Shown in pieces: positions 1 to 54,800 of a stretch of 64,000 bases of DNA. Every line of letters begins with the position of its first letter. Position 1 is the first letter of the stretch. The notes below the pieces were generated by a model. The model did no database searches, was not told where the DNA came from, and worked only from the letters and a program-made list of their open reading frames with translations. The translations under genes were made by a program, and so were the position numbers. The stretch comes from Marsupella aquatica (taxonomy: Eukaryota > Plantae > Marchantiophyta): contig OZ316891.1 in the NCBI GenBank assembly GCA_973895155.1, forward strand, positions 21,961,168 through 22,025,167. Direction: 5' to 3'.

Positions 1-2739
1 TTGGATCATCCGTGTGGGTTTGGCGTGAGGATTCACCCACCCACCCCGAGCGCCGACCGTCTCAAATCGAGGTGCCATGTGCAGAAGTATTGCCGCCTCT
101 TCTGGGGTCATCATATTTCTTAGATCTTCATGTAATGACTCCTCGTCCGCGCCCTTTGCCTTTTCCTTTCCCTTGACCTTCTCAACCACGAAATCAGTAT
201 CCTTTTCACCATACACCCATTTTGGCTTCATCTGGTTGGGCTTGAACACTTCATCCCAGCTGACGTTCTCTTCGCGAGAAATTCCCGCAAAGATAACTTC
301 TTCTATTCCTCCCTTCCAACATGAGTCGTGAGGGTGAGGTTGATCATCTCGGTAATAACTCCCATACTCAATGTGAATAGTCAGAGTTTTTGAATGTCCT
401 AATTTACAAAGAGCGCTTAGGACATTCAGTACAAGGTAACCCGGATGGACAGTTATCATCACAACAATGGTGGGATTCCGTGGTAGCTCTACTATGTATT
501 GGAAGAGTACCAAAATCTCTGCTTCGGTCCACTCCTTCTGTTGAAGTCGGCTGAAATCAACAATTGCAAGAGGGCATGTTGGAGATTGTTCTTCCAACAA
601 CTCCGGATCGACTGTCTTCATTAGGTTGTTACTAAAAAATCTGACCCACGGTTGGGTCCGAGAACTTGTCCCCCCGCCAAACTTCTGACAGTAAATATCA
701 TCTAGACGCATCACCAATGTCATTGGCAATATCTCACTCTCCTTTGTATGATTAGACTTCAATAAATTTGTCAACCATACTTCACCAGCCGCTCTTCGGC
801 ACCTGTTCAACTCCGACTTGGCACCTAACAATGGGAGGACCTCAATTACTTTAACCCAATCAATATCTGCTGGGAAGTTTTTCGGATCCTTCTTGAAGTA
901 GTAATCTCCAATAAGAGACTTCAGTTTGATCAATATCTTCACCTCCTTTGCAAAGTCCTCCATTGCTGGAACATCTGACTTATTTGTCGGATCCTTCTTC
1001 AATAAAACCTGACCTGACTTCACCTTGTTCAAAATTCTGGTCAAATCTCTACTTGATATTTCACCATCAAAACAACGAAACATTGCGACCGTTATACCCT
1101 TTTCGGACCTTTTGTTTCCCTGTGTACCAGCTCCATGAGGAAGATGTCCATCAATCCACATCTGGCACACTAACCGCCAGAGCTCGAAAAGATCATTCTC
1201 GGCAAAGAGCAACCAATATACATTTTTCAAGTCTTTCCTCCCCATGGTCATCCTTGCCAATGCCAAATAATCCTATAGTCAAAATTAGGGGAAAATAAGT
1301 TATCTACAATCAATGAGATTTGACAACAAACTATCACTTGCTTGTTGGACAGAGACCATCTCCATCCAAGTCATAACTAAAAGTAAAAGGAAGAGAAATC
1401 TCTGGAATGGACGATGACACTCTTGGACAGAGATCATCTCCATCCAAGTCATAACCAAAAGTAAAAGGAAGAGAAATCTCTGGAATGGACGATGACACTC
1501 TTGGACAGAGATCATCTCCATCCAAGTCATAACCAAAAGTAGAAGGAAGAGAAATCTCTGGAATGGACGATCACACTCTTGGACAGAGACCATCTCCATC
1601 CAAGTCATAACCAAAAGTAGAAGGAAGAGAAATCTCTAGAATGGATGATCACACTCTTGGACAGAGACCATCTCCATCCAAGTCATAACCAGAAATATAT
1701 TGAACTAAAATCAATGTAACGGACGGTCACACTCTTGGACAGAGACCATCTCTGTCCAAACAAGAAAAGTGTTTCTCACCTGAAATTTTTTATTTTCTTG
1801 GGCGTTTGACTTGTTGTCCCCGTGCTTTGGCTTTCTTGGTCCTCTGCATTCAAGGAATTGTTTCCTTGCATGAACAATTGTATCTTTGAAGCACGATTGA
1901 AACACCATCGTCAAATTGATGGCATTTGATCTCATTGAGTGCTCAACCAATATAGCCGATGGTGTAAGGTCTGACAATAATCTAGACTTCCTGTATTTTA
2001 ACTTTTTTGCCAACACTGTGAGCTTGGCATCAGTTTTGGCCCATTCGAGAACCCACTTGGCCGCCCTAGCCGAATGTTGCCCACTGATGGCAAAGAAACC
2101 AATCTCGCCTTTCTTCACTCTTGCAAGAAAGTCTTTGCGGTCGTTCTCCGTGCTGTCAAAATGGAGCAACTTTCTAAGCTTCAGACTATAAGGAAGCAGG
2201 TCCGCGACGTGAGGTTCATGTCCGGGGTTTTTGACCATGGATTCGGCTATGTGCTTCACATGGGTACTACTGAGCATCCTGTAACATAATCTTGCAGGTG
2301 CAGGCACAATTTTCTCCACTGGAATAGAAAACAGTTCATTTATCCCAAAAGTATAGTACTGCTCTATTCTCTGGAGAACATCATTTCCTTCTAAGACCTT
2401 CTTCTCCTCAGGGGCATCAAGTTTGTCTCCCTCATCTTCTGGGAGCATCTGTACGTCCGCAGGGGTTGACCGCAAAAGAGACTTGTCAGTTTTCTGTTTC
2501 TTCGCTACTGGCTTCTTCTCGGGTTCCTTCGGCAATGTCTCAATTTTCTCGCGACCCTTCCTCTCTCTTAGTCTTCGCTTCCCTACCACTTGTTTGGTGC
2601 TTGTCCCAGCCGTTGTTCCTGCAGTCCCTGTTGTTGTCTCCTGAGATATTTTTCTAGGTTTGGGAACTTCTTTGGGAACTTCTTTGCTCGGGGGGTTCAC
2701 CTTATGAAATTGTTGTATACCATGTGCGAACGCCCCTAT
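1..2739 (-). CDS. ParB/Srx(DndB-like) domain + degenerate beta-class amino-DNA-methyltransferase-like fusion protein; 3' end runs off the window
   Basis: Exon ~2739/2700-1780 (RMLSSTHVKHIAESM...FFAISGQHSARAA...HSMRSN). Phase-0 intron 1779-1273 (CAG|GTGAGA...TATAG|GAT). Then a 424-codon exon 1272-1 with no stop (PLAIVDFSR, GGIEEVIFAG, WVNPHAKPTRMIQ), absent from the ORF track because it has no stop in the window. Start uncertain: the nearest ATG (2723) is 1 nt out of frame. Confidence 0.7.
1345..1759. repeat. 78-bp-period array with 6 copies of the palindromic motif, inside the intron of the ParB-MTase-like gene
   Basis: TTGGACAGAGA(C/T)CATCTC(CA/TG)TCCAA starts at 1345, 1423, 1501, 1579, 1657 and 1735. 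Confidence 0.95.
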
Positions 2740-2930
2740 TTAATCACTCTCTCAAAAAGGAATAGGAAGCTCAAAAAACCCATCAATCATTTATTGACAC
2801 GTGGCAAGCAATGAATCATGTGATGACAAGTGGCACTTTTTGAATTGTTACCCCCTTACTTACTTCCTCGCTACTTCTAAGTACTTCCCTAAAATGAATA
2901 AAACGCCCCTTACTTCGTTCGCACATGATG

Positions 2931-4442
2931 TCAACATTTGTGGAAGTGACCCCCCCAAGCTTCTTTGTTAACAACTACTGGAAGCTCGTTCACCACTACT
3001 GGTGCAACATTTGTAGGCTTGGGTAATGATTCTACCCACTTTTTTGCATTATCCATCGCAAACTCCTCTGCAAATGCAATTTGCTTGTCAAGGCAAACAC
3101 CTGATTCCGAAGATAGGAATCCTGCCTTGTCAAGCAAATTATTTAAAATCCATGTCACCGGAAATGTATAATTCCCTTGGTGTTTATGGATATTCAGCTT
3201 CACATATTGGAACCCATACATTATGTCAAGTGGAAGAATCCCCTTCACTCCAGCAATCACCTTTTGAGTTGAATACGACTTAGGGAAAAAGCCCATTGCC
3301 ATCACGCCAAGTTCTCCAGCACTAGACCACTCAACATTGAACTCTGAAGAATACGCCTTTGATGGTAGATGTAGCTTAACCCATCGTATCCTTTCATGGA
3401 GCTCAAGAATGATGGAAACAAACCCTCTTCCTTCAATTCCAATGAAGACTACAGGTCCGAGTACAAGAGTCTCTTGATCTTCTGTTCTGACCTTTATGCA
3501 CAAAATGGGATCCCATCTCTCTGACGTGCTAAGGAAATCAAAATCAACTCTAGAGAACTCAAGGCCCCAACAAAAATCTGGTTTTCTCTGCTCCAACAAG
3601 ACTCCCTCGGAGCAATCTGATTCTGAAATTGCTGGTTTCAATCCATTTAGATCGCTCCCTGCAATAGTCCCATCCATGCATATTAGTTTGGAAAATCATA
3701 ATTTGTAATCGACAAAGATGAGGTTCTCTCACAGTTTGGACAGAGATGATCCCTATCCAATTGGACAGGGATGATCTCTATCCTCTACTTGGATAGGGAT
3801 GATCTCTGTCCAATTCGTAACAAAGATAATCTTTGTTCGATCAAAGGATTCTGACAATCTTTATTAGGAATTGGACAGGGATCATCTCTATCCTCTACTT
3901 GGATAGGGATGATCTCTATCCTCTACTTGGATAGAGATGATCTATGTCCAATTCCTAATAAAGATCATCTTTGTTCGATCAGAGGATACTGACGATCTTT
4001 ATTAGGAATTGGACAGGGATCATCTCTATCCTCTACTTGGATAGGGATCATCTTTATCCAATTCCAAATAAAGATCCTCAGCATCCTCTGATAGAACAGT
4101 TTCGATCCTCTGGTTGGACATCCTCTATCGTCATTTTGGAAATAGATGATCCCTATCCAATTGGACAAGGATGATCTCTGTCCTCAGTTTGGACAGAGAT
4201 CATCTCTATCCAATTCCTAATAAATATCACTATCTTCTACTTGGACTCTACTTGGACAGGGATGATCTCTGTCCATTTGCACAAATAGTCAACTTGTTAC
4301 CGAGATACTTACTTGGATTGAGCAATTGGAAGGCTCTGGAATCCTCGAGGGCCGTGTCTACCACATCCTCAATGGAGGAGAGGTCTATCTCCTCTGTTGG
4401 CTCAACGACCAAAGACACATGAATAGGTCTAGATGGATCCAT
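2931..4442 (-). CDS. Two-exon gene of unknown function (~285 aa), transposon cargo
   Basis: Exon 1 4442-4313 (MDPSRPIHV...LLNP). Phase-1 intron 4312-3659 (A|GTAAGT...TTGCAG|GG). Exon 2 3658-2931 is in frame with the 248-aa ORF. The phases match exactly. Confidence 0.6.
3736..4276. repeat. Array of ~12 palindromic motif copies inside the intron of the unknown gene
   Basis: TTGGAYAGRGATSATCTCTRTCC in groups of 2-3 at 25-28-bp spacing, separated by ~57-bp self-complementary linkers (TTCCTAATAAAGATC...GATCTTTATTAGGAA). Confidence 0.9.
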
Positions 4443-5340
4443 CTTGTGACACGTGGTCGTATGGACACGTGGAGGATCACAGAGCGTTAGATCTAGGGCA
4501 ATTAACGTGGCGGCTAGGGCAGAAACTCTAGTGTGAAGGCGGAGGTGGAGTGGGGCCTAGGGAGACTGGAAGCGAATGAGGCGGAGGAGCGGAGGAGCGA
4601 AGGCGCAGGAGCGAAGGAGCGGAGGCGCAGGAGCAGAGGAGCGAAGAAGAGGAGGAGGGAAGAAGAATGAGGCCCAAGTGGGACCTCTTGCCTCCTTTAC
4701 CCCCCCCCACACCAAGGTGAGGCAAGGCCGACTCAACACGTGGGAGGCCGAGCTACAAACCCTAAACGCAATGCTGCGTAAATTGTGCCGCCCGACTTGG
4801 TTGTGTGGCGTGGGTGACCTAATCCACTCGACCCTAAACTCCGCCGCTGCTTAAGGCTGATCACGCATCGCCTTATCCGTAAGAGCGATCTTGAATGGTG
4901 ATACTTGGGCTGCTCCGGCTGGTCCTCATTTGGTATTTTTATGTCTAGATTTTCATTCAGTGTCTCAACCAGGTCCGTTCATTACGGAGCCCCATTGAGC
5001 CACTCTTGTTTTCTAGACAGAACATCTAGTTTTAATTTCTTCCACACCCCTGAAGCATTTAGTTTACCAGCTTACTGAGAACTACCCCTTCAACAAAGTA
5101 TTTTATTACTTGGTTTGACAACATAAACTAAGTGAGTTTTGTGTTCAAGAATCATTTCCATTACAGGTAACTTTCAACTTAATTATAGAATATTCCATTG
5201 GTATCAAATTTAGGAATTGTATATCTAAGTTACTTAAGGTTGGGGTATCCAGCCCAACTCACGATTGGGATCATCTCAATCGAACCTTTCTTTGGTCAAA
5301 CATTAAATTAGTGTGTAGAGGTTAATTGTCCGTACAAGGG

Positions 5341-6335
5341 TCTGTCCACCGTTTGGATAGGGATGATCTCTGTGCACCGTTTGGATGAGGATGATCCCTG
5401 TCCACCGTTTGGATGGGGATGATCTCTGTCCACCGTTTGGATGGGGATGATCCCTGTCCGGCTTTTGGATAGAGATGATCCCTGTCCACCATTTGGATAG
5501 AGATGATCCCTGTCCACCATTTGGATAGGGATGATCCCTGTCCGCCATTTGGATAGTGATGATCCCTGTCTACCATTTGGATAGGGATGATCCCTGTCCG
5601 CCATTTGGATAGAGATCATCCCTGTCCACCGTTTGGATAGCGATGATCCCTGTCCCCCGTTTGGATAGAGATGATCCCTGTCCACCATTTGGATGGGGAT
5701 GATCCCTGTCCGCCATTTGGATAGAGATCATCCCTGTCCACCGTTTGGATGGGGATGATCCTGTCCGGCTTTTGGATAGAGATGATCCCTGTCCACCATT
5801 TGGATGGGGATGATCCCTGTCCGCCATTGGATAGGGATGATCCCTGTCTGCCATTTGGATAGGGATGATCTTTGTCCGCCGTTTGAGGTATTTGCTTTAT
5901 GGGACCCCAATATGAAAGGTTTTACTTTCAGATAGGACCGCTGAGTGATCCTAAGTGATCCGGACCTTGAATCATCCATGTCTATTGTTTGGACAGTGAT
6001 AGACCCTATCCGCCATTTGGACAGGGATCAGCTGTGTCTGCCATTTGGACAATGACAGACCCTATCCACCGTTCTGATAGGGATCATCCCTGTCCGGATT
6101 TTGGATAGGGATGATCCCTGTCCACCATTTACAGGGATCATCTATGTCCATTGTTTGGACAGTGATAGAACCTATCTGTCGTCTAGACAAGGATCATCCC
6201 TACCGAACGTCTAAATAGGGATCAGGGATCAGGGATCTTAGGGCTAGATAAGGATTGTTTAGGGACCTATTATTTTGCTTGATGGGGATGATCCCTATTT
6301 GCGCACTGTCCTTGGATGGGGTTCACACCTATCTG
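5341..6335. repeat. 28-bp tandem array (~19 regular + ~10 degenerate copies) of the palindromic motif, upstream of or within a 5' intron of the transposase
   Basis: Unit CCRTTTGGATAGGGATGATCCCTGTCCR at 5349-5880, with degenerate copies at 5989-6335. Candidate donor CAG|GTAACT at 5167 and acceptor TGTGCAG at 6387. Confidence 0.93.
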
Positions 6336-6404
6336 CTTCCTAGTTGGGACCATTGTTAACTAATACCTTACATTTCAAATTGTGCAGGTGAACACGTTGT
6401 AGGA

Positions 6405-9400
6405 ATGACCGGAATATTTTTGAGAGGAGACAATGTGATATTGACAATTGGTGGTTACGATGTTGCAAGCGGGACAGTTCAAAAAATCAACCCGCAAGAT
6501 AGTGTTCAAAAGATATTGTTGAGAGAGAATCGAATGGGCGTTCTCATTGAGAAAGTTTTTGACCGAACCACAAAACTACCATTTCCAATGCCTTGGGCAG
6601 AAAACCTTTTTGATGCCATTGATTCTTGCATTATTTGGGATTTGTCTTGCGCATATCTATCAACGATAACAAATTCTCAAAAACGCATTAGTGTAGGTAG
6701 TTGTTCAAATCGACCGGAGAGTAATTTGGAAAAAAATCCAATTGTAGAGGAGGACTCATCGACCACTCTGAGGCAAGGGGATGAGGTTGAAATGTTCATC
6801 TTTGGGTGTTGTGTAGCCCTTGGAGTTGTTTTCAATACAAATCTAATGGAAAGATGTCACAACATTTTACTTGGTGAATCACGGATCAGTGTGAGGGTCA
6901 CTGATGTCATTCATGGGAGTAGGGTTTTACCTTACAAACACAGCGGGGCTGAAACAATTGACGAAGCAAAAGACTCATGGGTTCTCTGGGATGTGGCAGA
7001 TGTCCGAAGTAGAAAGAGTTTCTCAAAGAAGGATGCGGGCGATGATATCAACATAGAGCGGAGTTTTGTTGCGGAGTCTCCCTCAGCTGAAATTTCTAAA
7101 ACTAATTGTGACTATTTCCAACGGTCAAATTGGATGTCAGAGTTGGTCGAACTATACATCGGTTCAGATCGAACCAATAGGGTTGCCACGGGGACCATCA
7201 CTGTGCCTCAAGAAACGGCGGTGGTTGACGATGAAATTCTTGGTGAGGACCATGTAGGGATTGCTGTGAAAGATGTGGTGGAATCACAATACTTTCCCAA
7301 TTTCCATAGGGGAGTAATTACTTTGGTTCGGTGGCGGATTGATTCAACAAAACTACTTGCAAACGGGAAATTTTTGTCGGACATTTTGGTTGAAGGTTCA
7401 GAGAGGATGGAGAGGGTGGATAGGGATGATCTCTATCCAAATGTAAATGATAGGGGAATGCCGCGCACAAGGCCATACAATTTCAACAAGAGGACTCATG
7501 TAGATCCGATTGAAAAGAAGAGAAGGTTGTTGGAAACCAAAGCAGTTTCAAAAACAACGGAAGCTTCGATTGATGAAATTAAAAGAGAGAATTATTGCAA
7601 GCAGAAATGTTGTCTGACTATGCCAAGAGAAGACATAGAAGATATCCGGATAGAATTTCACGGGATGTCTAGCGAGTCAAAAACATCACACATTTTCAAC
7701 CTCTTCCACTACAGAGAAGATGATGTTCGTGATAAGGGGCACCATGTTCTCAAGGGTATGGTCGTATGTAGACATGCATTTGCAATCATCCATGGCTTTA
7801 GCCACACGAAATATTATGATTACAAAAGGAGATATGTGGAGGGTTGCAAAATTGGGTTCCATGGAAACACGGGCTCCATGAAAACAAGGTCAAATACCTT
7901 GCATGCACGAGCTCTATTGGAGGATTTTTTGACTCGAAATGCAGAGCCCATGCCTCATATACCTTATGCTGGGGCTCATGGGACACCCTCCATTGAGTAT
8001 CGTCTTCCAGCATGTTACAAGAAGTTGGAGATTTTGGAAGATGTGAGAACAAAGATGAAGGAAGAGGGGCTTCCTCCAGTTACAGAGAATACTCTGTACA
8101 AGATTTGGAGCAAATCATTCGCAAACTTCAGTTTCCATAAAGATGGTGCATTTGCCAAGTGTACTCTTTGTTGTGAATACAAAGATAGTTTGATGCGAGA
8201 AAGAAGGAACAAAGAGCGTGCTGAAATTGAAGAAAAACGAGCGCAACATCTTCGTGAGCAGATGTCACGTAGATATGTTTACTATGCTCATCGAGTGATG
8301 GCTAAGCAACATCCAAGGAAATATCTTTGCATCATTCACGACAAGATGGATCAAGCAAAGACATGGATTCCAAAAATGGTCAGTACTCCTAAATCGCTTT
8401 CGGGTCATGGGATGCCACTACCTATTGCTCTCACAGGGATGTTGACCCACGGAAGGGATCCAAGAGTCTATGCACACTTTAGTGTCACTGGCCTTTGGCC
8501 AGGAGATGCTGATTTCACGGTGACATCCTTGGCTAAGTGTCTTCGAGACCTTGAAGAGTACAATGGAGACAAGACAGGTGACATGTTGGATGGCCTTTAT
8601 TTGGAACCTCATAGACCTTTCTTTCAAGCCCTTCTTGACTTTGATGCATTTTTTAAGGGATATTTGGAACCAAAGAGTATTCCAATGAATAGGTATATTG
8701 GTTCTGAAGATGCAGCCGAGAGTCAGACGGAGACGGTCTCCACCCAACATGGTGAGGATCAAGGAGGGGACATGCATGGGGAACAAGGCAGTCCATCTTT
8801 CAAGCCCTTGCCAAGGCACCTAACACTACAAATGGATAACTCAGCAAAGGATAACAAAAACCAGACTGTCATGCATTTTGTAGTGAGCTTGTGAGTAGAG
8901 GAGTATTTGAAACTGTTCAAATGTCTTTTCTAATGGTTGGTCATACACACGAAGATGTTGATGCACTCTTTTCGAAGGTATCATATCAAGTTCAGCACAA
9001 GGAAGTTGCAACTCTCCTTGCTCTTATGGCAGAGGTTTGGGAATGTGAGAGCATTCATCCAGTTCCCAGATTGATACAAGAAGTTGCATCTTACAAAGAA
9101 TATCTTCAAACTTTCAAAGTTAAAGATATTCAAGGTCACTCAAAACCCGTATCATTTCTTTTCTCTATGAGAGATAATGTACCAATATTTCAGTATAAGT
9201 CCCATGTAAAGCAAGCTTGGGCTCCAGTTGGAGGAAGGTGCATTTGGGCAATAGATCTGACAAAAAATTCTCTTCTTTTACCTAGTGGAGAGCCCTTAGC
9301 TAAATTCATTGGAGAGATACACAAAAAATCTGAAGAGATTATCCCATTTCTTAACAAGTACCTTGATTTTTTGAGAAAGAGTTGCACTGATGAGACATCT

Positions 9401-11230
9401 ATAGCATATAAGGAAAGATTTCCTCTTGTGAAATATTGGGAGAGAATTGTGGAGTTGTTGACAAATGGGCTTGCACTAGAAGGGGAGGGAAGTACTCAAT
9501 TTCCCTTGAAAAATGGATTTTGGCCTAAGACTAACCACGGCACTGGTTACAAGATCAACCAACCGGAACAAAGTGGTCCTCCAAGTGAAGATGAGGAGAA
9601 TGCGGAGATGACGGCTCTTCAAAATGAGGTCTTGGAAGAGATGGAAGATCAAGCAGCACCATTTGTTGGATCTCGAGCTGAGAGAGAACAAGGACGGTGG
9701 ATTCCCCTACAGGATATTCGTGAAGGGAACTTTGTATTTCTTCGACCTGAGGATGACTGGGAGAATAAAAATGGTGGAGGTCATTTTTGGTTGGTGAGAG
9801 CTTTGGGTTCGGTGGACCCTAAGCATGAAGTCCCAACTACATCTCCAACAAACCCTCCTATGCCTCAACAATATGCTCCAATGTTTCCAGTCGAATGGTG
9901 GAGGCCTAAACACTCTAAACTTGATGTGACTGAAAGTGCACGGTATCTAAACTGCTTCATGTCCACTAAGACATGGGCCCTGGGCCCTTAGCTTAACTAA
10001 TATGGGACCCCCCGTGCGAACAACTCAAGGGGTTTTTAAATCTTTTTTTTGAATAATAGTTATAATCGCTTATAATGTAACAACCCTTTGTTTTATTGGG
10101 TTCCATGTTATAATGAACCAAGGTGATCTAAAAAATAGGGTTCGAGTAGTTGTATGTAAGGGTAAAGCATATAGGGCCGCCACACGTCAATACTCATTCA
10201 TCCACATGTCATTACATCCTTGGTTTGGGGTGTGCAAACACATTTGAATTTTTGGGGGATAGGGGAAATTTTGCCTTTAGGGGGTCTCGTGTACCATTTA
10301 TGGATGACCAAAATGGTCTGCCGTCGATCTCTTTGATGCTCTATATCAAACGGTGTAGGGGTATATATGGCCTTGTAGGGCCCCCAAAGAAGGAGGAGGT
10401 CAAGTAGACACCGTTGTTCAATGCGTGTTGCGTCAGATGGGGATTCTATGATGCCACAAGTGATAGAGAGAGAGTCTCAATCCAGAGTCACTTATGTACC
10501 TCGGTGTATATTTATCACTTCTAGTGATCAAAGAATTGGTTTAAATGTAATAAGTTTTCCAATGCTTTAGACTCAAAGGATAACTTTCCTCTAAATGATG
10601 ATGAATATGCTCAACAAACTATGGGACAAACTTAAGTGCAATGTGGACTTACGGTTTTCATAGATGACAGCGTAGGATGTTTACAACTTAATTTGGATAC
10701 TTGTATGAGTTTGTTTGACTCTTAAATGCCTTGACTCCTACCTTCTTGCGAGGAAGTGTGTACATAAAGAATATGTTGTTCCTATTTTTGCTTTTGATAA
10801 TGTGAAATGTTTATTCCAATCTGTTTGACTTAGAATCTCTTTGATAGAATTTTTATAACACCTGAAGAGCATATTTAATGTCATTTTGATGAAGATTATA
10901 ATAGCCTAAAGGGCTTTCTTAATGACCCAAAAGTAATTTATTAATACTAATAAGAGCTTTTTAAAAGGGCAAAAAATAGTACTGAAGGGGTTTGGAAGGG
11001 AGGGGCGTTCACAGGCCGGTTCCATTAATATACACGGAGTAAGGGCCCAGGGGACATGGGAACGAGATCCAGGGTTTGGTGAGAACGCTCAACATTGGCA
11101 ATATGCAAATTCTGCAATGTATGGTTTTAAATCTGGCATGAAAGAAGAAAACATGGCGGGCAGAGGTTTGAAGATTCCTCGAAATGTTCTACAAACTGTC
11201 CAAAGTTATCTCCAAAGGATGGACAAGTAG
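6405..11230 (+). pseudogene. Sola-like/DUF7869-type DDD transposase, disrupted by a 1-nt frameshift (~8874) and a MITE insertion (9978-11052)
   Basis: Motifs AKCTLC..H, IIHDKMDQ, LQMDNSAKDNKN and FLMVGHTHEDVD. Adding one G at 8874 gives ...NQTVMAFCSELVSRGVF. Removing the insertion restores ...MSTKTWERDPGFGENAQHW...YLQRMDK* with the stop at 11228-11230. Confidence 0.8.
9978..11052. mobile_element. Non-autonomous TIR element (CCCTG family), 1075 bp
   Basis: TIR CCCTGGGCCCTTA / TAAGGGCCCAGGG. Perfect 8-bp TSD GACATGGG at 9970-9977 and 11053-11060. Excision restores the host ORF. Confidence 0.93.
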
Positions 11231-11519
11231 ACTTAGTTGTTACTTGCGAAGCTATAATAATTAAATTAATTTAGATAGTTACTTACCTAGTTTTTATGTA
11301 AATAGTCGACACTCATTCAAACATACTAACTTACGTACTAGTTATTTACTATTCTAATAGTTTTAATGTGAGACCATGTCATTGAGTGTTAGTTATACTA
11401 TCTCCTCATTTTCTAAACTTTTGATCATTATGAATATGAATGTTTGCTTTTTTGCATAATTAAAAATATTTTTCTATTCATTCCTTTCTTTTAAATGATT
11501 ATAATAAGATTTGGTAGGA

Positions 11520-11845
11520 AAATATACACTTTTTAGGCCAAATGTACACTTTGTTGCACTCAAAGTTACACTTTCTAGACCAACTACACTTAAATGTACA
11601 CTTTTTAAGCCAAATGTATGTTTCTTTCACTCAAATGTACACTTTCTAGGCCAAATGTACTAAAATGTACACTTTTAGAGCCAAATATACCTATTTTGAT
11701 GTTCAAATATACACTTTTTATTGCCCAAATGTACACTCTTTAGGCCAATTGTACACTTTTCTATCCCCAAATGTACACTTTTCATTGGCCAAATGTACAC
11801 TTTTCCTCGCCCAAAAGTACACTTTTCATTGCCCAAATGTACATA
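11520..11845. repeat. Tandem array of a ~20-bp unit CCAAATGTACACTTTT (~15 copies), probable subterminal repeat
   Basis: Repeated AAATGTACACTTT core with palindromic TGTACA, directly after the transposase 3' region. Confidence 0.85.
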
Positions 11846-12677
11846 AATCAAATAATAATACACTTTTAATGAATAGGCTGATTTTACCCAACCTGTTCTG
11901 TCCCAGCTGCAGGAGTTGGTCGCCTAGTAAGGGTGGGCCTGCCCTCTCCCACTCTGGCTCCCGCTGTTCGGAATCCCCGTGTAAATCTCTTAACTTCCAA
12001 GTATTTCCAGTCCGTTCCAATCAGTTCCGTTGCCTCCTAATCGTTGCTTTAAAGGTAAGGCAGGAGCAAAACACACTCATTAGGGCGTCTCAAATATGAG
12101 ATTTTGTGGGCACGGTCAGCAGCCGTAACATGTAAGTTACGGGTTAAGAGTGAGAAAGTTATGGACTGCCATTTTTGGCAGTCGATAACTTTGTTACGGA
12201 CGGCGACGGTAACCCGACACCGTAGAGCACAGGTCCGTAACGGCTTGACGGTCCCGTCTGAAGAACAGGGTCGGGCTGAACTGGGAATCTGCAGGGATGG
12301 GAGAGCATTTTCTGGGAGACTCACGGATTGCAGAGTGACGAGCATTGCACGAGGATGACAAGAATTGCAGACGACGATGAGGCAACGACGAGGGCGACGA
12401 GGCGACGACGAGCATTGCACGAGAGGACATCACACCTTTGTGCGTGGACAAGACGAGGCTGAACGTGCTAGGAGGTCCAACAAGGGGACGACAACTTTGC
12501 AGCTTATTGTCACAAACCTCCACTCAGGCAGGAACCAGAGCAGCTTGGTCCCATTTCCGCAATGCGTTGCCACATAGGAATCCACTTGAATTAAGGGCAA
12601 GGTCTTGGGTCTGTCTCAACTCCCTCGTCGAGAGCTAACCCCTAATTTCTGCCAGGTGTGTTGTTTTTCCAGGAGCC

Positions 12678-13217: not shown

Positions 13218-13449
13218 GGTAGCACTCCTGTGAAGAACAAGAGCGCTAAGAAACTTCTGACCGAACTAATCCAGTCTTTGAGAGACACAGACCTTTCAGA
13301 TTAGGGTAGGATCCTAGGTTTAGGCCTTGGCAATGACTGTTATGCAATGTCCTGCCCGATTGTGGTCAATATTTTTGAGTAAATGTTCAAATGTGTTCAA
13401 TAAAATTTACATGCGTTGCTTCCGTGTATGACTTAAGCTGCAGGTCAAC

Positions 13450-14932
13450 ATGCCTCGAATTTCAGACCGTCAACACTCACTATGTTTTGTGCGGAGGACT
13501 CTTGAATTCAACATTGCTTTAGAATCTTCTGGTAGTGAGCAGGACTCCGATGACTCCCTATCATCGTTGTCCTCTGGTTTTGAGATGGACATGACTATCT
13601 CAGACAGTGATACTGATGGAGCTTTCGAGGACTCAGATTCGGACTATGACTTTGACTTGTTTGAGCTAGAGGGTCATCCTAGTGAATTGCTAGCTCGAGT
13701 TGTATTTTGTTATGCACCACACTCGATACTTTGTTGGGCGTGATGTGGTGCAGAAGTCCAAGGATTTTGTCCGTAATTACTTTGATGGGCTTGGCCTTGT
13801 ATTCAGACAGATGGTGGCATGGAGAAGAGTACCTTCTTTTACTTGGTGGAATTAGTTGAGAACGATCCTATCTTTGTGAACAAGTCATGGCATGATCAAG
13901 CACCAATTGAATGGCAATTGGCTGTCACTTTAGATCATTTTGGCCAGAACGGAAATGGGGCATGTCTAAATCACATGATACCAACATGGGGGATCAGCAA
14001 TGGATCATTGGTGAACTTCACCAAGCAATGTTTGGTTGCACTAGAGGCAGCATTGTGCCAATACCTACAATGGCCAAAAGCTGTTGAACGTCATGAAATC
14101 CAGCAGGAGTTTGCAAAATTGGGGTTTCCAGACTGTATTGGTTTGATTGATGGATCTACTTTGCCTCTTGCACAGCGTCCAGCAATTGCTGGTGAATGTT
14201 ATTTTGATAGGAAATCAAGATATTCAATTAATGCTCAGGTGGTATGTGATCATCGAAGGAAAATCTTGTTCCTATTCACTGGTAAGGCTTGAAGTTGTTG
14301 CTGCATTTGTGAATGATTGTATTTGAAGCTTTTCATACTGTCATACATTCCTAATTGAATGTGCTTCTTTTGGTGTTGTCTCGTATCCAGGGATGCCTGG
14401 AACGTGCTCTGATTTGGTGTGCTTGAAGAAGTCACCCTTGTGGTTGTGGGTGAACAATGGAACCGGATTTACAAATGGGCAGTACTTGTTAGGAGATTCT
14501 GGTTATGTAGCCCTCCCGCACATGGCTGCTGCATACAAGAGAGCAGACACCAGTGTACACAAAGAGGACTTCAACTCTTGTGTTGCAAAGTGTAGGGTCA
14601 CCAATGAGCACTGCATTGGTGTGCTCAAATCCCGTTGGTACTCTTTGAGGGAGCTGCGAACTCAATTGAACTTGAAGAAGGACAATGTGTTTATGATCCG
14701 CTTAATTGGGGTATGTGCAAAGCTACACAACTTTGTTCAAGCACAACATGATGAATGGACCGACTTAGACTCCCCTATGGAGATAGATCGGGAGATTCCA
14801 GGGCTGGGCGAAGATCATCCATTGCATGGGCCCCAATTGGCCGGTGTAATGCTGCAAGCTAGAGTGATGAGCCATGCTTTGGCTTTCCATAGGGCACCAG
14901 GTGGAGTCCTCCATAGAGACGTTAATAGATGA
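13450..14932 (+). pseudogene. Harbinger-type DDE transposase (frameshifted N-terminus)
   Basis: GFPDCIGLIDGS, YFDRKSRYSINAQVVCD, intron 14282-14390 (G|GTAAGG...CAG|GG), MPGTCSD, YLLGDSGY, RVTNEHCIGVLKSRW. Frame breaks around 13720-13818. Confidence 0.88.
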
Positions 14933-16726: not shown

Positions 16727-18330
16727 TCACTGGGCCGGAGGCTGATCAACATCATCAATGACCTTCATCAAGCCTAGAATCTGCTCTTCCAATTTATCTG
16801 AGCAAAACAGCTGTAGTAACAATTGAGTCTTATGTTCAGCTCTAATCATTGACATTTGATGTTCTCTCTCCACCACAGCTCTTTTCACTAATTCTGCGTC
16901 AACTCGAAGGCTATGTCTCCTAGCAATACGCTCCCTCCGTTCTGCTTCTACAGCTGCTTCCATCCGAGCTTCTCGCCTATCTCTCAATTCTGCCTCCTTC
17001 CAGTTTCTTTTGGACTCAACCATTGATCTCATGTAATTAGCTTTTTGACCCAACTTCTCAGAATAGACAGCAGCAGAGTGTGAAGGAGCAGCATTGGTAG
17101 GACTTGGGCAAGCATCAGGTGCAGGAAAATTGCGTGAAGCAGCAGCAGGATGTCCATCATGGACAGATGGAGCAGGAATACTATGAGGAGGCAGTTCTGG
17201 GCCATCAGCTGTAGTCCATGCAAAGCTATCTGTTGTGGCTTGACTAAGGTCACCCTCATAGTTTTCATTCACAAGATCAGTGTAGGTCAGATATTCATTC
17301 CAGTTCAGCTCGGTTGCCTCCACCTCTCCATCGCTCTCTGCAAACCATAATTAGAAATTAGAAATTGGTTTAAACAAAAGAACTACAAAATATGTCCACT
17401 CAGAAGCAATGTACATAACCAACAACAGCTCATACCACTTAGAATTTCCGTTGCAGTGTATTGAGCCTGACTTTCTTCATCAAGGTTCACTGGGTGGCCA
17501 TCTGGTACTGCCTCGGTTGGTTGCACAGAAACATCAATACAATCAGGGCCCATTCCAAAAGATCCAATTGCAGCAGGTGCTACGTTTGGTCGATCACCAT
17601 ACAAGGCATGCATCCTCTAAAAATGGGGGCACGCCTTGTTCAACTTGTCCTCAATGGACATTCCTGCAGCAATCTCAGCTTCGTTGAGCCCTACCCCACT
17701 GTCTGTCTTCAATGCAAGCGCCTCTTTGAATCGCTTAACATATCTCTCGTATCTCTTCCCAAGATTATCCCCTATAGTAATCGCCATAGGAAACCCGTGT
17801 GCTTGCAGAACTACAAGCATCTGCTTGAAAGTAGTCTTCTTGGTAGGGCATTTCCCGTTGATCCTGGTACGATTAATGCTTCCATGGCTGTGCAAAATTG
17901 TTAGGATTTTCCAGCCAATCAAGGATCTTGCTATAATCTTCAACCCTCAATCAAACCTTGTCTCCAGGGAGCAGATGCGTGCTCCTTGCTAGAGCTGGGG
18001 TAGATTGAACTGGACACGAGGATTGAAGGGCCTTTGATTTGCTCGCACATTTGCCATCTCGCGATTGACAGGAACAACAACTTTGATTGAAACAGGAATT
18101 TCAGCAGCTTCCTGCACAGAGCACCTAGCATCCTCTCCAGCACCCTCAGACAAAGCGTCGACAATGGGCCCAGAAATGATCGATGGGGAAACTTTGATTG
18201 AGACCAAAATTTCAGCAGCTTGCTGCACAAAGCGCCCAACTCCCTGAGACAAAGTTGCGAGAATTGGCCCGGAAACAATCCCTCCTAGAGCAATCGGCCC
18301 GATCTGTGGCGGACACTCCCCCATTTTTCT
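16727..18330 (-). pseudogene. Harbinger companion (Myb/SANT-like DNA-binding) gene, fragmented
   Basis: Fragments WLENPNNF, LGKRYERYVKRFKEAL..TDSGVGLNEAE..SIEDKLNKACPHF*RMHALYGDRPNVAP and a coiled-coil C-terminus (16727-17323). It is convergent to the transposase, as is usual for the second Harbinger gene. Stops and frameshifts are present. Confidence 0.7.
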
Positions 18331-24900: not shown

Positions 24901-25013
24901 GACGCTCAATGAATAGCGCCTTAATTACTAATTCTCTGCTTGTACAACAAACGAGTTGATCTGCAGGTTCGCAAATTGTTTGGTTCTGATTCGTTTCTTG
25001 TTGTTGTTCTCAG

Positions 25014-26017
25014 AGGTGAATTCGAATGATACAGTTCCATGGGGAGTGTACGTGCTCGGCGAGCTTGTGAAAACACTAAACACCTTGACGCGACGGAGCG
25101 ATGGCACGATCAACAGAAAGCTTGCCGACCTCATTGAGTTCAAGGTCCCCGCTTCGGAGAAGCCAAAAAACGGCGTCTCAAGTAAAGACGTCGTCATCGA
25201 CGACGTGACAAACGTGTGGGTGCGAATCTACTTGCCCAGCGAGGAGTCGAATAAGAGGCGTCTACCAGTGCTTGTCTACTATCATGGAGGTGGCTTCGGA
25301 GTCCTTTGCGCCAACGAGGCAAACATCGACAACCTGTGCAGGACGATGGCAAAAACCTTCAACATGGTCGTCGTTTCTGTCAATTATCGGAGAGCACCGG
25401 AGCATCGATTTCCCACAGCGTACCACGATTCGTTCCAGGCGCTGGAGTGGCTCCAGTCCACTGCATCTCGTGCACACCTCCCTCCTACAGCAGACATTGC
25501 GCAGTGCTTCTTGGCTGGAGAGAGCGCGGGCGCCAACATTGCGCATTTCACGGCTTGCCGCGCTGCAGAAAACGAGAGGGAATTGATCCCACTGCGAATC
25601 CGTGGCGTGGTTATGCTGCAGCCCTTCTTTGGATCCGAGCGGCGCACGGCGGCTGAAAACGCTCTCGCCAATGTGCCTCTGATTTCCACTGATGCCACGG
25701 ACTGGCACTGGAAAGCTTTTCTGCCCGAAGGAGCGGACAGAGATCATCCAGCTTGCAACGTCTTCGGCCCTAATGCTCGTGACATAGCAGAGCTCCCCCT
25801 TCCACCTATTTTCCTGGTGACGGGCACTCTGGACCTGCTGATCGACCATCATCTCAATTACGCGTCTCGCATGCTGGAGATGGGCAAGTCCATCAAAGTG
25901 GAAAACTACGTTGGTGGTGTTCATGGGTTTTATTTCTTTGCGCCTGTTGGCACGAAGATATCTTTGGCGTGCCTCGCCGATGTCAAGAATTTCATCCAAT
26001 TGAATTCAAGATCATGA
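25014..26017 (+). CDS. Carboxylesterase (CXE, HSL/GID1-like alpha/beta hydrolase); main exon, start probably in an upstream exon
   Basis: RRSDGTINR, YYHGGGF, VSVNYRRAPEHRFP, GESAG, DWHWKAFLPEGADRDHPACN, DLL, VHGF (Ser-Asp-His triad intact). Acceptor TTCTCAG at 25013. Confidence 0.92.
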
Positions 26018-34251: not shown

Positions 34252-35732
34252 ATGTGTAAAAACCTGAAGGAGAAGGGGAAGCGAATGGTCAAGGACGAGG
34301 AGGAAATTGATGAGGCGGCGGAGCCAATGAAAGGTAAGAAGAAGCGAAAGAGAAAAGAGGAGATGGAGGCTGAGGCACTGCCGCTGGCAGTGCGCACATC
34401 AGTGCAGACGTTGAAGAGAGCCCTGTATATTGGAGCACATGTCAGTGCAGCTGGAGGTAGGTTCTTTCTTTCATAGATCATCAAGTACATTCCGATTCCT
34501 CCCTTTCTTCCCATGCATATGGAATCTGCTAGACTCTTGAACGGCACAATGAAGTTCAATGCTGGATAATTTGTTAGTTGATTTTCTCGACCCTAAACCC
34601 TAGACCTCCACTCCCTCATCCTTTCTCAGTACTTGTGTCTGACACAAACTGAAATCTATTGACGTGAACAGGAGTCCATAATTCAATCAACAATTCTGTT
34701 CATATTGGTGGAAACGCGTTCGCCTTGTTTGTCAAGTCACAAAAGAAGTGGATAAGCCCTCCACTCGCTGAGGAGGCTCGTGATCAATTCCTCGCTCTTA
34801 GCAAGAAGCACAGCTACGATTGCTCGAAGCATATTGTACCTCATGGCTCTTACTTGGTGAATCTCGCACAGAAGGACCCTGATAAGGCCGAGCAAGCGTA
34901 CAACTGCTTCTTGGACGATTTACAACGCTGCGAGGCTCTTGGAATAAACCTTTACAACTTTCATCCTGGTAACACTGGGCCACATAGGCGAGAGGAAGCA
35001 ATAGGTCGTATAGCAGCGAACCTCAACAGAGCTCATAAGGCCACCAAAAGCGTCGTCACATTGCTTGAGAACATGGCGGGAGGTGGCAACTTGATAGGAT
35101 CTACTTTTGAGGATCTTCGGCATATTATCGCTCTTGTCGATGACAAGTCCAGAGTCGGGGTATGCATCGATACATGTCATTCCTTCGCTGCAGGTTATGA
35201 TCTAAGGACTCCGGAAGCGTTCGAGAAAACCATCGACAGTTTTTCGGAAATAGTAGGAATGAAATACCTCAAAGCGCTACACATAAACGACAGCAAAGCG
35301 CCACTGTCGTCGCATCGAGATCTTCATGCCAATATCGGGACTGGATTCTTAGGCTTGCGCGCTTTCCACAATGTTGTCAATTTCGAGCCTTTTCAGCATT
35401 TACCAATGGTTCTCGAAACTCCCGTACAAAAGAAAGGCGAAAACGGGAAAGTAGTGGACGATACGGGGGTGTGGGCGGCTGAAATCAAGTTACTTGAAAG
35501 CCTGATTGGTGCGGATACTGAGAGTGAGGATTTCAAAAGTGAAGAGCAACGGCTACAGGATTTGGGCGCCGAGGAAAGGAAGAAATTCCAGCAGCAGGTA
35601 GATAAAAAGGTGCAGAAGACAATTGATGCCATATTCAAAAGGGCCAGTCCTAAGAAACATAAGAAGAAGGCGCAGGACGAACCCCGGTCGGATGTAGAGT
35701 CCGATGGAGAGCGTTCAGAATTTGCCCAGTGA
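34252..35732 (+). CDS. APN1: AP endonuclease family 2 (endonuclease IV / Apn1), ascomycete-like, ~421 aa
   Basis: Exon 34252-34456 (...LYIGAHVSAAG), intron 34457-34671, exon 34672-35732 (GVHNS...GNAFALF, HGSYLVNL, YNFHPG, LLENMAG, CIDTCHSFAAGYD, LHINDSK, DLHANIGTG, LETP). The canonical EndoIV metal-binding motifs appear intact. Confidence 0.95.
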
Positions 35733-51800: not shown

Positions 51801-54800
51801 TAAGAGTTTCAAATCCAGAACTCATCCTAAAATTGAGGTATAACTTCTAATATGGTAAGTCAAGGAACGAGGTGGTTTCGTTGTCTTTAATTTTCCAGAG
51901 ATTGTAACACAGGTCTAGAAACTCTTGCTCACAACCGTTGCTTGATCTATGGCACATCTACGGCATATGGTTTTGACGTGTTGGGTCGAATAATTGAACC
52001 TTCTGTACCTTAGCTTGATATTTCTGATGCATTTTCTCCATATCCTCTTGATTAGACTTCCGAATCTCCTCAACCTTCCGATGCAACTCAGCAATGTTGC
52101 CATTACACTATTGAAACAAGTTAAACAAACGGATAAAATGCCTTTAAACCAGGTTCATATTCTATAAACAAGAAAATTCGCATCCGAACAAAACCAACCG
52201 TCTCATTCCCCGTCCGGTGCTCCTCTTGCATTTTGTGAATCTCCTCAGCATGAATGGTAGCAATCTTTGTTTTCTCTTGCTCATAGCCCTGCAGAAGTTT
52301 ATCTATCTGCAGGGTCGAATGGGGTAAACGAGTAAGATTGAGAAATATGTGTAAGCAGATCGCATCCGACCTGCAGATCTACAGTCTACGTCAGGATTTC
52401 AGAGAATGTGCCTATGAAAATCTTACCGTTTCGCTCGCGTTCTGAAGTTCCACTTCCTTTTTGTGAATTTCATCGGAGTGAATGGAAACGATTCTTTCTT
52501 TGTCTTGCTCATGACCCTCCCGAAGTTTTCTGATCTGCAATTGAAAGCAAAATCGGAAAATCTGTTAATAGTATAGCCAGTTATGCAGATCGCATAAATC
52601 TAAGCTAGCCAGTGCCTACTTCTTAATCAGGACTTCGGTCCGGACGGAGCATGATGGTACTGACCATCTCCTTCACGATCTGAAGGTCCTCTTCCATTTT
52701 GCGAACTTCATCGGAGTGAATAGAAACGATCTTCGTTTTCTCTTGCTCTTGCTCTTGAAGTTTTCTAATCTGCAGAGCGGACGGAAGACCAGTCAAGAGT
52801 TTTGTGATCTATTAATGGTTCGTCGGTCGAAGCAATTCCTACTGGCTCAACCATGACTTCGGAGAATATTTAAACATTAACTACGTACCGTCTTATTCGC
52901 TCTATGAAGCTCCTCGTGCTGTTTGTCAGTTTCTTCAGAGTGAACGGAAACGATCTTCATTGTCTCTTTTTCGTGACCTTCTCGAAGGTGGCTGATCTGT
53001 AGCGAGGACAGGGAATTTAGCTAATCAAAACTTTTCGGAAATGTGAATAATCTGTACTTCAAGGAATTGAACATTCTTGGACAGGTGACAGACACCACAT
53101 ATTACCTTGCACTCGCAATCATCTTGCAAACTTAGCCACCGTTGGTCGAATTTTCCAAGCGCCGTCGCCATGCCTTCGTCAGAAGCTTTTCTAGCCGCCT
53201 TCAGGGCATCTTCTCCCTGCGAATTATATTTACATTCAGTAAAGGAGAAATCAGGAACATAGTCTGGAGACTTGTCTTCCGATGATTTCAGAAAGCTAAT
53301 AATTAATTGTGGTTCCAGTCTAATATGTGTTGGACTGGATGAATGGTCCTTACTATATCCTTTCAATCGGACAAAACCACAAATGTGCATGGATCTGGGG
53401 TTCTCTTGAGAAGGTGCTGGTCTCTTGGAATAACTAGCAAATATAAGCCATCATAGAATGTTGCACCTTTAGCCTTTCCTTTGCAATGCCTTCCTCAATT
53501 TCCATTTCAGATTTCCTCCTCAGGGCCGCTATTTCCTGTGCGAATGGGTACTCAAGGGAAACGCGTGGCATGAGTTATCAAATTATTTTACCTACGGTCC
53601 ACAAAACACTTTCAGTGATGAATTGGAGTACATTGCGATTTAGGCCAAGAATTTGGCTATCTTCGATTCTTGACCAACCTGATTATAACGCTGTGAAACG
53701 TCCTCAAGATGCTGGGTCGATTCTTCCTGCTTGGATTCTAATTGCACGTTAAACTTGATCTCCAGACTCTTCGCCGTATTTTCCGATGCAGTTAATAGCT
53801 CTTGCACCTGGACAGAAAATAATCATCAGATCCTGTATACAAATGAGCAGAGTTTTGCTCTTAGAGTGCGCGCTCCAATTGTTTCAAAGGAGGCTGAAGT
53901 GAAGTCGTCTTACCATGGCGTTTTCTCCTCTGAGATTCGCTTCATTCTGGGACATGCACGAGATGAGTTGAGTTTTCTCAGTACACTCCCGAGAGAGTCG
54001 TTGAAGTTCATCCTGAAGAGTAGAAAACTTCAACTCCTCCTTTCCGATACAATCGACCAACCTCTCATTCTCTTTCACCGCTTCTTGTAACCGACGTCTG
54101 ATAAGCTCCATATCAAGCTGATATTCTATAAGATGATTGGCCGATTGTTTCTGCTTGGATTCTAACTGAAGTTTAAACTCAATCTCCAGACTCTTCGCTG
54201 CAGCTTCGGCTGCAGTTAATTGCAGTTGCACCTGGACAGGATAATAATCATCAGATCCTGTATACAGATAATCAGAGTTTTGCTCATGCGATGCGCGCTC
54301 CATTTGTCTGAAAGGAGATGGAAGTGAACTTGTCTTACCGTGTCGTTTTCTCTTCTGAGATTCGCTTCATTCTGGGACGTGCACGAGATGAGTTTACTTT
54401 TCTCCGTACACTCCTGAGAGAGTCTTTTCATTTCATCCTGAAGACTAGAAATCGTCGACTCTTCCTTTTCGATAATATCGACCAACCTCTCATTCTCTTT
54501 CACGGCTTCTTGCAACTGACCTCGGATAGCCTCCATATCAAGCTGATACTCTACAAGATGTTTGGCCGATTCTTTCTGCTTGGATTCTAATTGCAGGTCA
54601 AACTGAATCTCCAGACTCTTCGCTGCAGCTTCCGCTGCAATAAATTGCTCTTGCACCTGGGCAGAAAAATAATCATCAGATCCTGTATTCAGATGATCAG
54701 AGTTTTGATCTTACAGTGCGCGCTCCAATTGTCTGAAACGGATTGAAGTGAAGTACGTTGTCTTACCATGACGTTTTCTCTTCTGAGATTCGCTTCATTC

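Follow-up and report, generated by a model that had tools for sequence, protein, structure and literature searches.

Transposons that carry a gene for a ParB-like protein were recently described in two algae. In Ectocarpus, the element Sola1-1_Ec32 has an opposite-strand gene combining a ParB-like part with an N4C/N6A methyltransferase, and self-binding and modification were proposed for its product (PMC12477816). In Bostrychia, the Plavaka accessory gene PAG3 encodes a ParB-like protein beside tandem inverted-repeat arrays, and self-binding was proposed there too (10.1101/2025.02.11.637652). Both proposals date from 2025 and, in the parts of these papers cited here, neither was tested and no site was defined. 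The ParB-HTH (helix-turn-helix)/methylase fusions described by Iyer in 2016 come from chlorophytes and chytrids and, in the sections cited, are not the element discussed below. Finally, the VANC proteins of Arabidopsis VANDAL transposons have as targets tandem arrays located in introns and upstream of the transposase, which diverge between families (PMC5735166). Here we describe a locus at the beginning of a stretch of 64,000 nucleotides from the liverwort Marsupella aquatica (contig OZ316891.1, positions 21,961,168 to 22,025,167; hereafter the window), comprising a Sola-like DNA transposon with a divergent accessory gene, the helper, and three arrays of a 23-bp palindrome. The reading that we favour, to which we give about an even chance of being right, is that of a broken, high-copy Sola-like transposon whose helper would bind the palindromes in the element's introns, cover the transposon with protein and protect its expression from silencing by the host.

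The preliminary description of this locus had reported some 45 to 50 near-palindromes across positions 1345-7439 and no full copy elsewhere in the window, and both statements were reproduced. With the consensus TGGAYRGRGAT-S-ATCYCYRTCCA, built from the repeats, 43 sites were found at up to 4 mismatches, all within 1346-7439; within 1-7500 their number rises to 46 at up to 5 and to 49 at up to 6 mismatches. In the other 56.5 kb (7501-64000) there is no site at up to 4 mismatches, and over ten shuffled versions of this part the mean was 0.1. The same description had placed GATC inside the palindrome, which holds for most copies; four palindromes of array 1 read GACCATC and lack GATC, which is therefore not the essential core. 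The centre base is G or C in all 43 palindromes. Array 1 (1346-1758) contains 6 copies with a period of 78 bp, array 2 (3737-4275) 12 copies in steps of 25, 28 or 82 bp, and array 3 (5354-6301) 24 copies at up to 4 mismatches, mainly with a period of 28 bp, while a single palindrome lies inside the transposase coding sequence (7417-7439). Thus 42 of the 43 fall within three predicted introns, although predicted exons account for 56% of the element. The spacers are unrelated among the three arrays and the bases flanking the palindromes show no conservation. Because the sites are nearly all outside exons and occur in three arrays with unrelated spacers, the motif itself appears to be what is kept. 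Half-site positions 3, 4, 9, 10 and 11 agree in 83, 85, 86, 85 and 82 of the 86 half-sites, respectively; positions 5 and 8 are variable, and the variation is position-specific and found in both arms. Two single exact matches to the palindrome in viral contigs were taken as chance.

Such repeats could also be intronic RNA hairpins, serving splicing control or as a source of small RNA, or neutral minisatellites spread by gene conversion. On the sense strand, mismatches are biased towards G-U over A-C in two of the three arrays (6:0, 33:6 and 7:10), as expected of RNA hairpins, and the sense-strand folding energy is lower for array 1 (-180 versus -130 kcal/mol) and array 3 (-562 versus -466 kcal/mol), with little difference for array 2; tandem arrays, moreover, amplify without selection. 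However, tandem copies are not independent, and a strand-biased C-to-T change yields the same G-U pattern. Pairing alone needs neither a sequence shared by a coding site and three arrays with different spacers nor one and the same substitution throughout the copies of a lineage, as seen in the relatives described below, and the only hairpin match in Rfam was sub-threshold (35.8 bits for a cut-off of 90). We give this explanation little probability.

The helper is predicted to be one spliced gene on the minus strand with three exons (4442-4313, 3658-1780 and 1272 onward), a model drawn from splice sites with compatible phases and from the gene models of homologs. Its first coding exon (4313-4442), with an ATG at 4442, is predicted from the sequence only, and is followed by the putative intron holding array 2 (3659-4312), which has a GTAAGT donor, a TTGCAG acceptor and matching phases. 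The 5' part of the second exon (2960-3658) encodes a conserved N-terminal domain that aligns with the N-terminal part of the proteins P0004, P0006, P0007, P0008 and P0010, where it shares one open reading frame (ORF) with the ParB-like domain; searches of this domain against Pfam, PHROG and NCBIfam gave no match. The domain is about 230 aa long, and the N-terminal region of distant family members is either a different one or strongly diverged. The 3' part of the exon (1780-2686) encodes a Lys-rich linker and the ParB/Srx-fold domain (1780-2421), with its SGQHS motif. Between the two parts lies a nested 273-bp insertion (2687-2959) resembling a miniature inverted-repeat transposable element (MITE), with an 8-bp target duplication (CTTCTTTG) and imperfect terminal inverted repeats (TIRs), which breaks the helper. 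In two of four sequencing runs, contigs join 2666 to 2960, and the exon without the insertion is a stop-free frame of 533 codons. ORF 2931-3695 belongs to the same helper gene as ORF 1711-2739 (minus strand), in which the ParB-like motifs quoted in the preliminary description are indeed present; a 25-nt micro-exon considered for joining these two ORFs was dropped once the insertion had been found. Parts of the MITE-like element are deeply covered in run X7, where the surrounding element is mostly thin, so that it is probably an independent family. The second predicted intron (1273-1779), with GT/AG ends, holds array 1, and the models P0021 and P0161 read FQ-DW across its junction. The third predicted exon (1-1272), cut by the window start, encodes a helical region and then a beta-class N4/N6-methyltransferase-like domain. 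A profile search gave 140 relatives of the helper, and the nearest named ones are liverwort proteins (Calypogeia fissa, 58% identity in the ParB domain); named homologs are present in Riccia sorocarpa as well.

ParB, Noc and KorB bind palindromic DNA as dimers. For the helper domain at 1780-2421, AlphaFold gave a model with a predicted local distance difference test score (pLDDT) of 95.4 from 86 aligned rows, and the first 28 matches listed by Foldseek are all ParB, Noc, KorB, PadC, Srx, SbnI or Atu1540, with a best E of 2.8e-3 and a probability of 1.00. The VIA structure search agreed, its top eight matches all having the ParB/Srx fold: Z was 7.4 for PadC, 7.3 for KorB and 7.1 for ParB-N, the best match superposing with a root-mean-square deviation of 3.1 over 98 residues and none reaching a Z of 8. 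These models support a ParB/sulfiredoxin N-terminal fold for the domain, with scores that are middling yet consistent, and thereby the fold proposed earlier, Noc, ParB and Srx being among the top matches. Sequence searches were less informative: single exons of the window compared with Pfam, PHROG, NCBIfam, PDB sequences and phage proteins gave nothing useful (the best was a DndB hint at E 0.1), and the window exon that encodes the helical region has no HTH match in Pfam.

KorB is a top structural match, and palindromes lie on both sides of the divergent promoter region, in first introns. The helper might then bind the palindromes and repress its own element, as a copy-number control similar to the autoregulation of KorB or DndB. 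We consider this very improbable, since the element is very abundant in four of four runs and VANC, which has the most similar site layout, is an activator in the part of the study cited (PMC5735166).

The arginine of the canonical ParB CTPase P-motif (GxxR) is replaced in the helper family: at this position, mapped by sequence motif without residue-level superposition, at least 90% of the 86 aligned rows have Ser (GQHS). In other ParB folds, an arginine-to-alanine mutation at a GxxR-type motif abolished nucleoside triphosphate (NTP) binding, according to the portion of the source cited (10.1101/2025.10.10.680097). The fusion to an amino-methyltransferase-like domain, claimed in the preliminary description, was established through homologs. 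The third exon of the window taken alone matches no methyltransferase family; its identity with P0161 of Calypogeia is 42% over 422 aa, and this protein matches PF01555 at E 6.5e-5. The longer Riccia sorocarpa and Calypogeia models run on into a region with a weak PF01555 match, and nine of ten homologs match this family, with E values between 6.5e-5 and 0.021, none of which reaches the curated cut-off. The family profile A7 matches M.RsrI at E 8.1e-7, a beta-class N4C/N6A homology with the motif order IV ... I, and the ParB-methyltransferase fusion is right because the window exon shares the above identity with a homolog from this profile. In the Atlas, the third exon fell close to P-loop proteins (0.88), an assignment that was rejected because the profile searches point to a methyltransferase fold.

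The methyltransferase motifs are altered as well. The window reads DFSR where DPPY is expected (motif IV), and [DNS]PP[YFW] occurs in none of the 15 proteins matching the motif-I pattern, two of which are N-terminal fragments that match by chance. Motif I, whose position is beyond the window, reads D-F-S-G-G in the homologs, with a one-residue gap relative to M.RsrI. Judged by these residues, the methyltransferase domain is likely inactive, and both helper modules look catalytically degenerate yet conserved. Since GxxR and DPPY are altered family-wide, the helper is more probably a scaffold that binds DNA than a methylase or a CTP clamp, and the DNA-modifying or CTP-clamp activity suggested at first was not borne out. 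The opposite view would be that of an active ParB-like NTP clamp and/or methyltransferase with non-canonical residues, which loads, spreads and writes N4-methylcytosine (4mC) or N6-methyladenine. It is backed by the maintenance of both folds, and of the GQHS and D-F-S-G-G motifs, across strongly diverged proteins, and is the reading given for the Ectocarpus element (PMC12477816); furthermore, many phages encode ParB-N6_N4 methyltransferase fusions and the ligands of ParB folds also include ATP or GTP (10.1101/2025.10.10.680097), and Marchantia has a real 4mC enzyme, DN4MT1, whose paper, in the part cited here, makes no mention of ParB. Against it stand the lack of a DPPY-type motif, the gap in motif I and the Ser at a position where the loss of arginine kills NTP binding elsewhere, and we judge an active enzyme unlikely.

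The preliminary description had tied the arrays to the helper gene, and this association extends to related loci. A scan with a distant helper subfamily yielded six loci (L001-L006), whose ParB exon is 23-25% identical to that of the window in the five loci compared; four loci have a splice donor at the corresponding position. An 18-bp palindrome whose 2-nt centre is free occurs in all six, either upstream of the ParB exon, in the intron that follows it or in both, one palindrome of L006 being further downstream; the 31 sites found at up to 1 mismatch are all outside the matched exons. The window palindrome is absent from L001-L006, and theirs are absent from the window. The 13 sites of L001, L002 and L005 all read TCCTCTCG..CGAGAGGA, whereas the 18 sites of L003, L004 and L006 are all of the TCCACTCG..CGAGTGGA type, with one base different in each arm. 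This change spans both arms and both introns, and falls on the branch to one protein clade (support 99/98) in a tree of 46 rows (40 hand-picked fetched proteins, the window and five loci, L005 being omitted as truncated). As the L001/L002 type forms a supported clade nested in the other type, a single switch between palindrome types is indicated. Candidate residues for this change in the site are those that distinguish L002 from L003, L004 and L006 among the first 45 of the second exon. Closer relatives gave no loci in the metagenome, prokaryote or viral contigs scanned. In the gene models P0121, P0148, P0153 and P0154, the helper has a fused NIF/FCP1-like (carboxy-terminal domain phosphatase-type) domain, and another lies downstream of the helper at L003:6489-7304 (plus strand; Pfam E 1.5e-11); it is possibly a third module acting on RNA polymerase II and was not observed in the window, which is truncated on that side.

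The DDD transposase that the preliminary description had placed divergent from the ParB-like gene is confirmed by matches to DUF7869 (Pfam PF25273, E 3e-11 and 1e-25) and by three Asp motifs (HDKMD, QMDN and GHTHEDVD), which we take to be of Sola3 type. Sola3 ends presumably read GAG...CTC with a TTAA target duplication, and the CTC/TTAA end at 11987-11993, together with these motifs, suggests a Sola-like (Sola3-like) DNA transposon. On the plus strand, the predicted 5' intron of the gene (5167-6387, GT/AG sites read from the sequence) holds array 3 and is followed by the main part of the transposase (6388-9977), which is frameshifted near 8872, where one extra base is found in about half of the depth in all four runs. 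A nested 1075-bp non-autonomous DNA transposon (9978-11052) interrupts the last part of the transposase gene; it has 13-bp perfect TIRs and is flanked by an 8-bp target duplication (GACATGGG). Contigs from two of the four runs join 9969 to 11053, which is the empty site of this insertion, and beyond the joint the last part of the ORF is open to a stop at 11230 (11053-11230, plus strand). The copy in the window is thus broken three times, by the 273-bp insertion, the frameshift near 8872 and the 1075-bp insertion. Subterminal repeats similar to AAATGTACAC (11520-11870) form a second motif, unrelated to the palindrome, and the probable right end (...CTC then TTAA, 11975-11993, plus strand) follows from the sequence and a drop in contig depth, the element probably ending at about 11989. 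This depth, obtained from four runs of two studies, is high in the bin 11677-12093 and drops 15- to 160-fold in the bin 12094-12500 in every run. Because 1-12093 is covered by contigs at a summed depth far above that of the flank beyond, the element is an abundant, high-copy repeat. Its left end lies to the left of the window start. No ParA ATPase was found among the ORFs of the element scanned, its left part being outside the window, and the segregation bias once envisaged is not supported. The N-terminal region of the transposase (6390-7430, plus strand) has a weak Transposase_23 (TNP1/En/Spm) match at E 0.006 and seems to hold a small domain in two or three copies.

This long N-terminal region could itself bind the palindromes, for autoregulation or for transpososome assembly, the helper being then a passenger. 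In favour of this, the transposase gene holds the biggest of the arrays within its predicted 5' intron and a single site within its coding sequence, and transposases are reported to be able to regulate their own copies sequence-specifically. However, the arrays are internal, at least 4.5 kb away from the right end, where the subterminal repeat is a different one; in the relatives, sites flank the ParB exon of the helper; and a ParB gene with arrays was reported beside the unrelated Plavaka transposase (10.1101/2025.02.11.637652). We hold a binding transposase to be decidedly unlikely.

In the mechanism that we propose, the helper would bind the palindromes sequence-specifically as a dimer, the helical region after the ParB domain being the presumed DNA-reading part, as in ParB and Noc. 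It is the helper rather than the transposase that would be the binder, and it would act as a scaffold, with neither NTP nor methyl-transfer chemistry, and co-evolve with sites that multiplied within the introns of the element. Bound helper may coat the element, with anti-silencing or activation as the outcome by analogy with VANC; protection from silencing is favoured since the sites are arranged as in Arabidopsis VANC. The helper might be supplied in trans by intact copies at other places in the genome. Both the binding of the helper to the palindromes and the splicing of the arrays we infer from the sequence, and the association of ParB genes with different transposases (Sola1 and Plavaka) in the literature supports binding by the helper.

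Several points weigh against this mechanism. The structural scores are middling, enzymes of the ParB/Srx fold that do not bind DNA (Srx, SerK and SbnI) are among the matches, and the region in which a helix-turn-helix would be sought is predicted helical at a pLDDT of 34.5, a low confidence. The G-U bias described above is what RNA hairpins would give. Among the relatives, the switch happened once, and three of the loci (L001, L002 and L005) are near-copies; the six contigs contain no transposase, so that the sites may have co-evolved with a transposase and the loci are putative transposons. The second exon of the L loci has no significant match to the window exon or to profile A7 (best E 0.48). 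Finally, the anti-silencing outcome is drawn by analogy. On a wider scale, we put forward as doubtful the idea that a phage-type ParB-methyltransferase became a catalytically dead self-recognition protein in eukaryotic transposons, land plants included; family-specific palindrome-protein pairs, amplified in introns, would shield the whole element from host methylation and constitute a second, VANC-independent anti-silencing system with a readable specificity code.

Elsewhere in the window, an intron-free ORF of 354 aa at 34668-35732 (plus strand) matches AP_endonuc_2 at E 5e-56, with a CpG observed/expected ratio of 0.95; it presumably resembles fungal Apn1, and horizontal transfer or contamination is possible. 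A Harbinger-like DDE_Tnp_4 transposase is present in pieces at 13432-14932 (plus strand), and convergent ORFs at 16727-17350 may be its second gene. An ordinary host gene for a plant-type carboxylesterase (Abhydrolase_3, E 3e-56) is located at 24932-26017 (plus strand), and three similar tandem coiled-coil ORF segments at 53884-55357 (minus strand) are probably repeated exons of one gene.

The interest of the locus lies in its sites. Because three different defined sites are tied to three protein groups, the self-binding proposed for the algal helpers becomes directly testable by cross-binding. The design is extended to liverwort-related genomes, near a transformable model plant, and the expected mechanism shifts from enzyme to scaffold. 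Should the protein block silencing, transposons would have in it a new means of escaping methylation by the host, and epigenome tools would gain a set of DNA-binding proteins with 18-23-bp specificity.

Among the known systems closest to the locus is Sola1-1_Ec32, with which it shares a transposase of Sola type, putatively so in the window, and an opposite-strand ParB-methyltransferase gene. That element belongs to a brown alga, its methyltransferase was predicted active and its paper shows no palindromes in the main text, whereas the element of the window is from a land plant, has altered DPPY and GxxR motifs and presents 43 mapped sites. Plavaka PAG3 also combines a transposon-borne ParB-like protein with adjacent inverted-repeat arrays, but it has an EnSpm/Plavaka transposase, its ParB is fused to a 2-oxoglutarate oxygenase with the methylase on a separate gene, and no family-specific motif switch is described in the part of the paper cited. 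Clustered palindromic sites and the ParB/Srx fold are shared with bacterial ParB/parS, Noc and KorB, and the domain pairing with phage ParB-N6_N4 methyltransferase fusions (10.1101/2025.10.10.680097); the helper differs from bacterial ParB by the replaced GxxR arginine, by the lack of a visible ParA gene in the element and by being a spliced eukaryotic gene. DUF3723 proteins of fungal Starships are likewise helper genes of mobile elements (10.1101/2021.12.13.472469): in an Atlas feature search, the ParB exon fell close to fungal clusters that contain DUF3723 (0.93-0.94), a proximity to be taken as a lead only, and Pfam DUF3723 is absent among the 24 families listed for the 86 aligned rows. VANC works in a similar way, as an element-encoded protein with family-specific target motifs in intron arrays, and is a functional analogue, not a family match: the cited part of its description gives a MuDR transposase, DUF1985/DUF287 domains, non-palindromic motifs of 8-9 bp with a single orientation and an experimentally shown function, whereas the element of the window has no DUF1985/DUF287 match in Pfam and a DUF7869 transposase. 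Self-recognition by a ParB protein is not a new idea in eukaryotes, being in print for brown and red algae, and the supplements of both algal papers may map repeats; for land plants, our literature search found no description of this type, in agreement with the preliminary description. What is new here with respect to all these systems is the land-plant lineage, the degenerate catalytic motifs and the first evidence of family-specific palindromes.

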